The position numbers and the translations under genes are program-made. From positions 737,664-801,663 of the forward strand of contig CAXNMK010000002.1 in NCBI GenBank assembly GCA_964203225.1: 64,000 nt of DNA. Direction: 5' to 3'. The stretch comes from Kofleriaceae bacterium (GTDB lineage Bacteria; Myxococcota_A; Polyangia; Haliangiales; Haliangiaceae). The first letter of the stretch is position 1; every line of letters starts with the position of its first letter. Positions 30,588-33,338 of the stretch are shown here, piece by piece. Under the pieces are notes generated by a model, which did no database searches, had not been told where the DNA came from, and saw only the letters and a program-made list of their open reading frames with translations.

Positions 30588-33338
30588 TTGAGCTTCTTGT
30601 TCCCCATCGATCGTCCCGAGGCCGCTGCATCGCGCGCCGACAAGGTGCGTGGCGTTCACCTCGCCATCGTCGTGGAGAACAAGGACGGAGACGGGAACCC
30701 CGGCTACCGGATCAAGGTCAAGTTGCCCTGGCTCTCCGAGCAAGAGAAGACGTTCTGGGCCCGCATCGCGGTGCCGATGGGCGGTCCGGATCGCGGCACG
30801 TACGTGCTGCCCGAGATCGACGACCAGGTTCTGGTTGTGTTCGAGAACGGTGACATCGACACGCCGATCATGGTCGGTGCGCTGTGGTCCAAGAAGGATG
30901 AGCCCGTCGAGGTCAACGCCTCCGGGAAGAACAACACCAAGCTGATCAAGTCCCGCTCGGGCCACCGCGTGATCTTCGACGACAAGGACGGTGCGGAGAA
31001 GATCACCGTTGTCGACAAGACGAAGAAGAACAAGATCGTCCTCGACGCGGTCAAGAAGCTGGTCCAGATCGAGTGCGCCGGCGACGTCCTGATCAAGGCC
31101 GCCGATAACGTGATCTGGCACTCGAACGCCCTCAAGGTCGGCATCGGCCAGGCGATGACGGCGAAGGGCAAGAACATGCTTGCCCACGCTGGCTCGACGC
31201 TCAGCATGAAGGGCGGATCGAAGATCACGATCTCGGGCAGTTCGATCAACATCAACACCTCGGGCTCGCCTGCGACCAACGTCTCCGGATCCGGCGCCGG
31301 TGAAGTCGCTGGCTGTGGCGGCGGCGCGAGCGCGGCGCCGCCGCCCGCGGCACCGCCTCCGGCGGCGGCCCCTCCTGGCGGCGGAGCTCCCGGCGGCGGT
31401 GGCGCGGGCGGCGGCTCAGGCACGGGCGGCGGTGGCGCGGGCGGCGGCTCAGGCACGGGCGGCTCGTCGACAGCCGCGGCTCAGGCACGGGCGGCGGCTC
31501 AGGCACGGGCGGCACGGGCGGCGGCTCAGGCACGGAGCGGCTCAGGCACGGGCGGCTCAGGCACGGGCGGCGCGGGCGGCGGCTCTGGCACGGGCGGCGG
31601 TGGCGCGGGCGGCGGCTCAGGCACGGGCGGCTCGTCGCACGGGTGGCGCGGGCGGCGGCTCTGGCACGGGCGGCGCGGGCGGCGGCTCTGGCACGGGCGG
31701 CGGTGGCGCGGGCGGCGGCTCTGGCACGGGCGGCAGTGGCGCGGGCGGCGGCTCTGGCACGGGCGGCGGTGGCGCGGGCGGCGGCTCTGGCACGGGCGGC
31801 AGTGGCGCGGGCGGCGGCTCTGGCACGGGCGGTGGCTCTGGCACGGACGGCGGCTTCGGCACCGGCGGCGGTGGCGCGGGCGGCGGCTCAGGCACCGGTG
31901 GCGCGGGCGGCGGCTCTGGCACCGGCGGCGCTGGCGCGGGCGGCGGCTCTGGCACCGGCGGCTCTGGCGCGGGCGGCGGCTCTGGCACCGGCGGCGGTGG
32001 CGCGGGCGGCGGCTCTGGCACCGGCGGCTGGCGCGGGCGGCGGCTCTGGCACCGGCAGCTGGCGCGGGCGGCGGCTCTGGCACCGGCATCTGGCGCGGGC
32101 GGGGGCTCTGGCACCGGCGGCTCTGGCGCGGGCGGCGGCTCTGGCACCGGCACTGGCGCGGGCGGCGGCTCTGGCACCGGCTCTGGCGCGGGCGGCGGCT
32201 CTGGCACCGGCGGCGGTGGCGCGGGCGGCGGCTCTGGCACCGGCGGCGGCGCGGGCGGCGGCTCTGGCACCGGCGGCGGCGGCGCGGGCGGCGGCTCTGG
32301 CACCGGCGGCGGCGGCGCGGGCGGCGGCTCTGGCACCGGCGGCGGTGGCGCGGGCGGCGGCTCTGGCACCGGCGGCTGGCGCGGGCGGCGGCTCTGGCAC
32401 CGGCGGCGGCGGCGCGGGCGGCGGCTCTGGCACCGGCGGCGGTGGTGCGGGCGGCGGCTCTGGCACCGGCGGCGGTGGTGCGACCGGAACGCCTGGCGAT
32501 GAATCAGGAACGGCCAACCCCGGCGGCGGCATGGGCGGCGGTAGTGGTGCGGGTGGGGCGGGTGGCGGAGCCAGCGGTGGCAGCGCGACCGGCGGCGTCA
32601 GTGGTGGCGCAGGCAGTGGTTCCGGTTCTGGCGGCGGTGGTGGCGGCGGTGGCGGCGCGACCGGCGGCGTCAGCGGTGGCGGCGGCCGGCGACACGGATG
32701 CCGGTGGCGGCGGCGGCTCTGGCGGCGGCGGCGGCTCTGGCGGCGGCGCCGGCGCGGGCGGGGTCAGCGGTGGCGGCGCGACCGGCGGCGTCGATGCCGG
32801 CGGCGGCTCTGGCGGCGGCTCTGGCGCCGGCGGTGGCGCGGGCGGGGTCAGCGGTGGCGGCGCGACCGGCGGCGTCGATGCCGGCGGCGGCTCTGGCGGC
32901 GGCTCTGGCGCCGGCGGTGGCGCGGGCGGGGTCAGCGGTGGCGGCGCGACCGGCGGCGTCGATGCCGGCGGCGGCTCTGGCGGCGGCTCTGGCACCGGAG
33001 GCGCCGGTGGCGGCGCGAGCGGCGGATTTGGCAATCGCGCCCCGGGCGCGACCACCACGTCCACGACTGGTGGCGGCGGCGGTGGTGGCGCAAGTGGCGG
33101 TGGCGCGGGTGGCGGTGGCGCGGGCGGTGGCGGCGGCATGAACGGCGGCAGCGTCGGTGGCATGGGCACCGACGCGGCTGGCGGCTTCAGCGACACCGCG
33201 AGCACCGGCGCGGCCGGCACCAGCACGGGTGGCGCAAGCACGGGCAGCGCGGGTGTGGCGCCCGGCATGGGTGGCGCGGGCCCGAGCTCCGGGATCGGCG
33301 GCTCGGCAGGCATCGACGGCGGTCGTGGGGTGCGCTGA
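30588..33338 (+). CDS. Spike protein gpV/gp5-like paralog 2 with ~700-aa Gly-rich tandem-repeat C-terminal extension. Frame discontinuities lie within the repeats
   Basis: N-terminal GVHLAIVVENKDGDGNPGYRIKVKLPWLSEQ...VLVVFENGDIDTPIMVGALWS parallels the preceding spike. It is followed by a beta-helix-like region, then GGGSGTGGGGAGG repeats. The Gly-rich reading sits in the 30588 frame at both ends but in the 31300..32502 frame in the middle. Confidence 0.6.
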   Translation: MSFLFPIDRPEAAASRADKVRGVHLAIVVENKDGDGNPGYRIKVKLPWLSEQEKTFWARIAVPMGGPDRGTYVLPEIDDQVLVVFENGDIDTPIMVGALWSKKDEPVEVNASGKNNTKLIKSRSGHRVIFDDKDGAEKITVVDKTKKNKIVLDAVKKLVQIECAGDVLIKAADNVIWHSNALKVGIGQAMTAKGKNMLAHAGSTLSMKGGSKITISGSSININTSGSPATNVSGSGAGEVAGCGGGASAAPPPAAPPPAAAPPGGGAPGGGGAGGGSGTGGGGAGGGSGTGGSSTAAAQARAAAQARAARAAAQARSGSGTGGSGTGGAGGGSGTGGGGAGGGSGTGGSSHGWRGRRLWHGRRGRRLWHGRRWRGRRLWHGRQWRGRRLWHGRRWRGRRLWHGRQWRGRRLWHGRWLWHGRRLRHRRRWRGRRLRHRWRGRRLWHRRRWRGRRLWHRRLWRGRRLWHRRRWRGRRLWHRRLARAAALAPAAGAGGGSGTGIWRGRGLWHRRLWRGRRLWHRHWRGRRLWHRLWRGRRLWHRRRWRGRRLWHRRRRGRRLWHRRRRRGRRLWHRRRRRGRRLWHRRRWRGRRLWHRRLARAAALAPAAAARAAALAPAAVVRAAALAPAAVVRPERLAMNQERPTPAAAWAAVVVRVGRVAEPAVAARPAASVVAQAVVPVLAAVVAAVAARPAASAVAAAGDTDAGGGGGSGGGGGSGGGAGAGGVSGGGATGGVDAGGGSGGGSGAGGGAGGVSGGGATGGVDAGGGSGGGSGAGGGAGGVSGGGATGGVDAGGGSGGGSGTGGAGGGASGGFGNRAPGATTTSTTGGGGGGGASGGGAGGGGAGGGGGMNGGSVGGMGTDAAGGFSDTASTGAAGTSTGGASTGSAGVAPGMGGAGPSSGIGGSAGIDGGRGVR
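31290..33130. repeat. Extended GC-rich tandem repeat region (~33-bp GGCGGCGGCTCTGGCACSGGCGGCGGTGGCGCG-type units, then 87-bp units x3)
   Basis: Visible periodic repeats encoding (GGGSGTGGGGA)n and (GGVSGGGATGGVDAGGGSGGGSGAGGGA)3. Confidence 0.9.

Follow-up and report, generated by a model that had tools for sequence, protein, structure and literature searches.

The window considered here is a stretch of 64,000 nucleotides (nt) with a GC content of ~69%, taken from contig CAXNMK010000002.1 of a Kofleriaceae bacterium (positions 737,664 to 801,663 of the forward strand); coordinates below count from its first letter. A complete, phage-tail-like contractile injection system of a Kofleriaceae-type myxobacterium occupies 16991-50027 of the window on the plus strand. 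Within this cluster two genes for gp5/gpV-type spike proteins, gpV1 and gpV2, stand in tandem, and the second continues past its spike domain into a long glycine-rich repeat tail with several apparent switches of reading frame. The long Gly-rich tail is a conserved feature of the lineage, and most of the switches are probably errors of the consensus sequence.

The tandem spike genes and the tail of gpV2

gpV1 (29861-30583, plus strand, 240 amino acids (aa)) encodes an ordinary gp5/gpV-type spike protein that matches Pfam Phage_base_V (E 1.3e-21) and the C-terminal half of an NCBIfam VgrG-related model. A scan of GTDB species representatives yielded 80 related loci, and the order tube-gpD-gpV1-gpV2, with gpV1 upstream of gpV2, is kept in 76 of them. 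The N-terminal spike domain of gpV2 (30588-31295, plus strand, frame 0, TTG start), comprising an oligonucleotide/oligosaccharide-binding (OB) fold and a beta-helix region, matches the same Pfam family (PF04717) at residues 25-100 with a score of 84.4 bits (cut-off 23.8; E 7.1e-24). A preliminary description of this DNA had proposed tandem gpV/gp5-like spikes, and this is borne out: both open reading frames (ORFs), 29861-30583 and 30588-33338 as assembled, match Phage_base_V, and the two proteins are 38% identical across 226 aa. The hub for gpV2, its partner in the baseplate, is encoded by a separate gpD/gp27-like gene at 28797-29855 (plus strand; Pfam Phage_GPD, E 1.3e-10), syntenic in 76 of the 80 loci, and no gp27 half is fused to gpV2 itself.

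The gpV2 spike domain has 477 homologs, with a top identity of 72%, annotated as proteins of Kofleriaceae, Haliangiales or Myxococcota metagenome-assembled genomes (MAGs). Positions 16-221 of the gpV2 family profile align with residues 371-572 of the solved spike 7aef_q (E 3.2e-23). Generally, the profile covers residues ~370-600 of solved spikes, including 7aef_q, 7b5h_AJ, VgrG chains and a Photorhabdus chain of 9qgm, while the matches to Pvc8 (6j0m) and Afp8 (6rbk) comprise only the OB-fold part (query positions ~39-122); E values across these matches run from 3e-23 down to 3.5e-07. An AlphaFold2 monomer of the spike domain, built from a 17-sequence alignment, gave a mean predicted local distance difference test score of 47.7, too low for a fold search. 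Judged by its sequence, gpV2 is a bona fide gp5/gpV-type spike paralog.

Beyond the spike domain the tail can be divided into four segments, all on the plus strand. The first, at 31296-31389, is an Ala/Pro-rich linker from spike domain to repeats with the frame-0 translation GEVAGCGGGASAAPPPAAPPPAAAPPGG. It is followed at 31390-32482 by a 33-nt tandem array of ~33.5 units (Tandem Repeats Finder score 1328, 83% matches), which in its Gly reading gives GSGTGGxGAGG and encodes units of the GGGSGTGGGGA type. A non-repeated Gly-rich segment extends over 32483-32726; its Gly reading lies in frame 2 as far as an extra C (32686-32687), which returns it to frame 0. Last is an 84-nt array of 3.2 copies at 32727-32998, encoding (GGVSGGGATGGVDAGGGSGGGSGAGGGA)3 in frame 0 and free of frame breaks (Tandem Repeats Finder, 97% matches, no indels); its final copy is corroborated by an Illumina contig described below. 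Both repeats, (GGGSGTGGGGA)n and (GGVSGGGATGGVDAGGGSGGGSGAGGGA)3, are thus present in GC-rich tandem form as first described.

The frame of the Gly reading was followed by delimiting units of the 33-nt array with the GGCTCNGGCAC motif as anchor and measuring every unit. Lengths divisible by three (33, 30, 27, 18, 15 or 51 nt) were found for 28 of 35 units. The remaining seven are off-length and start at 31446 (32 nt), 31523 (16 nt), 31614 (43 nt), and 32011, 32042, 32073 and 32359 (31 nt each). An eighth shift comes from the extra C at 32686-32687. Frame 0 carries the Gly reading at 31380-31475 and again at 32690-33338, with other frames between, along the path 0>2>0>1>2>0>1>2>0. The earlier statement that the Gly reading uses the gene's own frame at both ends and a different one in the middle therefore stands in outline, the path being more complex than claimed, with eight switches, each a net single-base shift. 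The array is open in all three forward and all three reverse frames; this follows from its composition, and openness is thus no evidence for translation of any one frame.

Extent of gpV2 and its orthologs

As assembled, frame 0 stops at 33336-33338; a clean ORF in frame 2 carries on to 34246. The continuation (33341-34246, plus strand, frame 2 as assembled) encodes a conserved acidic C-terminal module of ~300 aa. A ninth frame break lies between the Gly tail and this coding region, at a run of four G (33327-33330, plus strand). An independent short-read Illumina contig from a near-identical strain (L005; ENA ERZ27280286, assembled by MEGAHIT) has five G at this position, and with G5 frame 0 passes into the C-terminal module. 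L005 matches window positions 32933-40094 at 99.93% identity, with four substitutions and one indel in 7.16 kb, the single indel being the additional G. Its translation leads from the Gly tail ...GIDGGRGGALSAPGTGG... unbroken to ...GSGGSDA* at 34246, and the predicted junction peptide between tail and module is ...GIDGGRGGALSAPGTGGPDL. In L005 the final 0.4 kb of the tail is continuous with the module, and the contig stops short of the spike domain. The four substitutions all fall within a 70-nt low-complexity stretch (33028-33098) near the 5' end of L005, the other 6.8 kb being identical; the sequence may be hypervariable here, or else one assembly or the other cannot be relied on at this point.

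Against a related strain (L086, 89% nucleotide identity) the ratio of nonsynonymous to synonymous substitution rates (dN/dS) in the C-terminal module is 0.17, by which measure the module is under purifying selection. A tblastn comparison detects homology between the module and ortholog C-termini, e.g. in L010 (36% over 203 aa, E 1e-22) and also in L065, L012 and L049, and at least 10 loci have it in the same frame as the N-terminus. An ordinary protein search of the C-terminal 301 aa was swamped by low-complexity words and brought back nothing beyond the record of the window itself; a HMMER search without word seeding, over 1.84 billion representatives, gave 34 homolog clusters, all short and all matched at the C-terminal end, the pattern to be expected if contig breaks had truncated the products. 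The translation of 33341-34243 has no match among Pfam or NCBIfam families and no recognisable toxin or enzymatic domain.

The preliminary description had ended the gene at 33338. L005, the dN/dS ratio and the tblastn matches indicate that this stop is not the natural end, and that the gene runs on to 34246 with a conserved module instead of closing as a bare low-complexity tail. On balance, gpV2 is taken to be a single gene at 30588-34246, ~3.66 kb or ~1,219 codons. Its layout comprises a gp5/gpV spike domain, a short Ala/Pro linker, ~650 uncharged Gly/Ser/Thr/Ala repeat residues and the acidic module of ~300 residues.

A decaying pseudogene or a split gene, i.e. a truncated gpV2 ending at 33338 beside a separately translated C-terminal protein, is by comparison quite unlikely. 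It would agree with the frame-0 stop as assembled, with the 268-aa ORF that is on record for the source genome from an internal Met, and with the tail-less gpV2 genes of two loci (L051 and L064). However, the C-terminal region has a dN/dS of 0.17, and it is fused to the tail in all clean orthologs and in L005. Recent decay would also hardly be expected to leave nine independent lesions in one gene and no lesion across 28 kb of neighbouring genes.

The orthologs place the tail in a wider context. Twelve of the loci cross the tail as one uninterrupted ORF, 937-1235 aa long when measured from where the match begins, and all follow one plan: spike domain, an 'AGELGG..KDQV' linker, poly-Gly, hundreds of Gly/Ser/Ala/Thr repeat residues and an acidic C-terminus. 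These C-termini are rich in Ala, Glu, Asp and Gln, with motifs that include GQSVMxGGDGG and Y.DP..AA. The repeat sequence itself differs between loci while the layout is constant, and gpV2 of the window, read through at ~1,219 codons, fits this plan. The comparison with orthologs that the preliminary description had called for thus gave, in the uninterrupted loci, single ORFs with Gly-rich repeat tails and acidic ends, and, with synteny in 76 of 80 loci, the idea that the tail is a peculiarity of one genome does not hold.

Tail length changes quickly between close relatives: L078 and L079, at 94% core identity, have tails of 954 and 720 aa, respectively. The repeat array as such is real, and its copy number probably varies between strains. 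In 56 of the 80 loci the contig ends inside the gpV2 tail, 83-2273 nt past the spike domain. Short-read assemblers break at long repeats, and gpV2 is a systematic breakpoint of short-read Kofleriaceae MAGs; many database entries are therefore 'partial'.

Departures from the plan were also seen. The tail-less gpV2 of L051 and L064 is 253-256 aa long, and these loci have ~950 nt extra between the hub gene and gpV1. The tails of L040 and L073 contain a hydrophobic, transmembrane-like stretch after the poly-Gly, e.g. GAAIAGGVAVGAVAALGVIAL, a hint of possible contact between tail and membrane in certain lineages. Other gpV2-like proteins of ~360-565 aa (P0034, P0051, P0081, P0088, L047 and L053) end in a small folded domain rather than long repeats, L047 and L053 being located outside the usual gene order. 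Two further related matches (P0032 and P0093) carry a precomputed PF13620 annotation.

Origin of the frame switches

The single-base indels that the preliminary description had proposed within the repeats, compensating one another, are present. Among the three causes it offered (assembly error, slipped-strand variation or a switchable tail), assembly error fits best, given L005, a bias of broken tails toward Nanopore assemblies and selection on the Gly frame. Most of the frame switches are accordingly considered more probably consensus indel errors than biology. Nine net single-base shifts would have been left in a long-read consensus within extremely GC-rich, near-identical repeats, and the real gpV2 protein would be read in the Gly frame throughout.

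The break at 33327-33330, one of the nine, is directly contradicted by L005, which has G5 there instead of G4. Among the related loci an ORF was counted as broken if the in-frame stop lay >500 nt from the zinc-ribbon gene that follows gpV2 or if the C-terminal module was out of frame; C-terminal frame and stop distance were used in place of a Gly-fraction frame test, which gave false positives in Ala- or Asp-rich tails, e.g. that of L077. By this measure ORFs are broken in five of seven loci labelled as Nanopore from the type of their contig names (L012, L040, L056, L071 and L085) and in one of ten short-read loci (L010) (Fisher p 0.035). L056 (6700-9500) resembles the window, with seven switches. 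L012 (Nanopore) and L015 (short-read) share 95% core identity, and where L012 shifts, L015 stays in frame as GASGGAGAGAGGSAGAG. In all broken loci with a placeable C-terminal module, except L076, the module is out of frame although its ORF is intact and conserved. Frame-broken tails occur in the public long-read or hybrid MAGs L056, L012, L040, L071, L073, L076 and L085, and the out-of-frame C-terminal modules of such MAGs are probably mis-annotated.

Substitutions within the array point the same way. Across 17 units of 33 nt, leaving out one hypervariable codon and the degenerate last unit, the variable columns are third positions of the Gly frame only (TCA/TCT, ACG/ACC, GGC/GGT and GGC/GGA). 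These substitutions are silent in the Gly frame alone, also where that frame is frame 1 or 2 of the assembly, and such variation implies that the array evolved as Gly-frame coding sequence throughout. From this pattern, the selected frame all along the array of gpV2 appears to be the Gly frame. Composition can be compared as well: per 1000 residues, Trp and Arg number 0.3 and 17 in the 12 clean tails (9,953 aa), and the frame-0 tail of the window, with 56 Trp and 185 Arg, is an Arg/Trp-rich outlier. A further indication of consensus error comes from the protein collection, in which an exact look-up of the 916-aa frame-0 product was negative although the 268-aa ORF downstream of it, deposited under the same NCBI record, is listed; from this it may be inferred that the depositor's annotation treats gpV2 as frameshifted.

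Several observations weigh against consensus error. The window is otherwise clean, with no other broken gene in ~28 kb of abutting injection-system genes and one indel in 11.3 kb of Illumina overlap, so that an ~80-fold higher error rate would have to be confined to the array. Sequence contexts identical to those of the switches occur elsewhere in the array unaffected, which makes systematic base-calling error unlikely. The short-read locus L010 is broken too; the contrast between Nanopore and short-read loci is drawn from orthologs; and G4 versus G5 could reflect a genuine polymorphism between strains. Added together, the eight internal shifts cancel out (chance ~1/3), and two sub-groups of them compensate locally. 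Three 31-nt units in a row (32011, 32042 and 32073) are told apart by single substitutions (GGC>AGC>ATC) and total 93 nt; they look like a real frameshifted unit triplicated back into frame.

These last points would favour switches that are real. If stop-free, GGC-rich frames tolerate single-base insertions and deletions, later indels or unit duplications could restore the frame, and the linker would be a mosaic of Gly-rich, Ala-rich and Arg/Trp-rich stretches. The 93-nt total of the three related 31-nt units, the zero net shift of the array, a -1/+1 pair separated by 60 nt, the openness of all forward frames and the high quality of the rest of the window all agree with this; with the G5 of L005, moreover, frame 0 would be one ORF of ~1,219 codons despite the internal switches. 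However, no alternative-frame islands occur in the 9,953 aa of tail from the 12 clean orthologs, the substitutions fit Gly-frame selection even where frame 0 differs, and similar breakage tracks Nanopore assemblies, usually leaving the conserved C-terminus out of frame. Real switches are thus given a clearly smaller, though appreciable, chance. There is a slight chance that genuine switches make the linker frameshift-tolerant, with indels and duplications recoding neutral Gly/Ser into strongly cationic Arg/Trp and coupling or uncoupling the C-terminal module via G4/G5; strains would then carry physically different spike tips.

The array of 33-nt units lacks independent coverage, since the Illumina contigs near gpV2 stop outside this array, ending at 30802 on the left and beginning at 32933 or 33330 on the right. 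Same-strain metagenomes have low coverage, and one of their contigs breaks in unique sequence, at 30802. No match was found among Joint Genome Institute metagenome contigs for a unique 23-mer just upstream of the array or for a gapped pattern across the G-run.

The preliminary description had also raised a contingency locus altering the spike. In such a locus slipped-strand changes would toggle the frame and thereby switch the C-terminal module on or off or alter the charge of the tail. Two 99.93%-identical populations do differ as G4 versus G5 exactly at the junction with the C-terminal module, and tail lengths differ in the close relatives L078 and L079. The longest homopolymer in 31300-33400, however, is a G5; run lengths are mostly G1-G3, and the switch sites fall mostly in runs of 1-3 bases or in no run. 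The 33- and 84-nt units are multiples of three, so slippage in copy number cannot shift the frame. None of the switch sites has a slippery XXXYYYZ heptamer, the three in the region (33041, 33278 and 33344) lying elsewhere, and a single population-level difference was seen. The suggestion of a switchable tail is accordingly not supported, a contingency locus being regarded as highly improbable, and the G4/G5 difference, one observation, is better explained as error or rare polymorphism. Programmed ribosomal frameshifting and other RNA-level explanations were considered and rejected, none of the nine sites having a slippery motif.

The injection system and a proposed role for the tailed spike

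The cluster conforms to the extracellular (Afp/PVC-like) type: Pfam matches over 16991-48715 place sheath, tube, gp25, baseplate J, P2-I, spike, a Pvc16-like cap and an AAA ATPase together. Sheath genes and gp19-type tube genes are each present twice along with the cap, and the cluster also encodes a DUF6760 protein, a 637-aa protein and a 977-aa low-complexity protein. The last (25331-28264) is rich in Ala, Ser and Pro, has no family match and lies upstream of a tube-like gene; every substitution between the window and the Illumina contigs L001 and L002 falls inside its gene (26798-28111). A CIS_tube protein (28261-28788, plus strand) precedes the hub gene.

Downstream of gpV2 is a 60-aa zinc-ribbon protein (34665-34847, plus strand; CxxC...CxxC, weak zinc-ribbon Pfam matches only), followed by gp25, a 1012-aa baseplate J protein, a P2-I/PASTA protein and a CIS13-family protein, as assigned by Pfam and NCBIfam. 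The zinc-ribbon gene and gp25 come next after gpV2 in all 22 of the related loci that extend far enough. In these 22 loci zinc-ribbon identity is 48-90% (67-90% in most), exceeding that of the tube and hub genes. No PAAR-domain protein was found in the injection-system cluster, and for this reason the zinc-ribbon protein could be considered as a candidate partner at the spike tip.

Past the baseplate genes, 40946-48715 holds three FHA-domain proteins and the AAA ATPase, and a Ser/Thr protein kinase is encoded nearby at 53658-56084 on the minus strand. By analogy with some type VI secretion systems, the FHA proteins and kinase suggest phosphorylation-dependent control. Just past the ATPase, a protein at 49368-50027 has an eCIS_core domain and a weak metallopeptidase-like match, and is a candidate payload of the injection system.

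Among known systems, the nearest likeness is to the 'evolved' VgrG spikes of type VI secretion systems, which bear C-terminal passenger or effector domains at the tip. Like gpV2 if read through to 34246, these combine a gp5-type OB fold and beta-helix with a C-terminal extension in the same polypeptide, encoded in an injection-system cluster. Spike and extension share one ORF in the 12 uninterrupted orthologs; the window as assembled stops at 33338. Evolved VgrG proteins have a fused gp27 half, whereas the hub of gpV2 is the separate gpD. Unlike theirs, the extension of gpV2 consists of ~650 low-complexity Gly/Ser/Thr/Ala residues and an acidic module without a recognisable enzymatic or toxin domain, and gpV2 coexists with an ordinary untailed paralog, gpV1. 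By this analogy gpV2 may work most like an evolved VgrG, but it lacks two defining features, the fused gp27 half and a recognisable effector domain.

The spikes of AlgoCIS (7aef chain q), Anabaena All3320 (7b5h), Pvc8 and Afp8 have C-terminal halves that align with the gpV2 family profile, yet they are single fused gp27-gp5 proteins of 530-590 aa without a C-terminal tail. A Haliangiales injection system has been modelled with a 'truncated' spike and a PAAR-like tip (bioRxiv 10.1101/2024.12.19.629468). As far as the passages retrieved from that preprint go, it shares with the window the lineage, the kind of cluster and a split VgrG-like spike that standard hidden Markov models for injection systems miss, and those passages mention no second gpV paralog or long repetitive tail. 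No description of a spike with such a tail was found in the literature searched, and the tailed gpV2 paralog appears to be undescribed so far.

For the array itself, the mycobacterial PE_PGRS genes offer a parallel. They consist of GGC/GGN-rich Gly repeats, open in several frames and liable to indels, to length polymorphism and to errors of sequencing or assembly. The likeness is an analogy of sequence behaviour only, protein family and cell location being unrelated.

In the gp5/gpV/VgrG geometry the distal tip of the spike is formed by the C-terminal end of the beta-helix. The gpV2 spike domain would trimerise on the gpD hub, replacing gpV1 or mixed with it, and, because of this geometry, its C-terminal extension would project from the distal tip, outside the baseplate. 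The uncharged, disordered repeats may serve as a flexible spacer, and the acidic module at the end, like a passenger domain on an evolved VgrG spike, would be displayed or carried. The module could be a tether, a sensor or trigger, or cargo.

In practical terms gpV2 traps assemblies, and most long-read assemblies that cross its tail are frame-broken. Contig breaks and frame breaks lead annotations to split or drop gpV2, and the family has gone unnoticed as a result. In current injection-system models the tip carries a compact PAAR cap or a folded effector; a conserved spike paralog bearing ~1,000 residues of disordered chain and acidic module there would lie outside them. If the proposed placement is right, the tail could let predatory soil myxobacteria tether, trigger or load the device.

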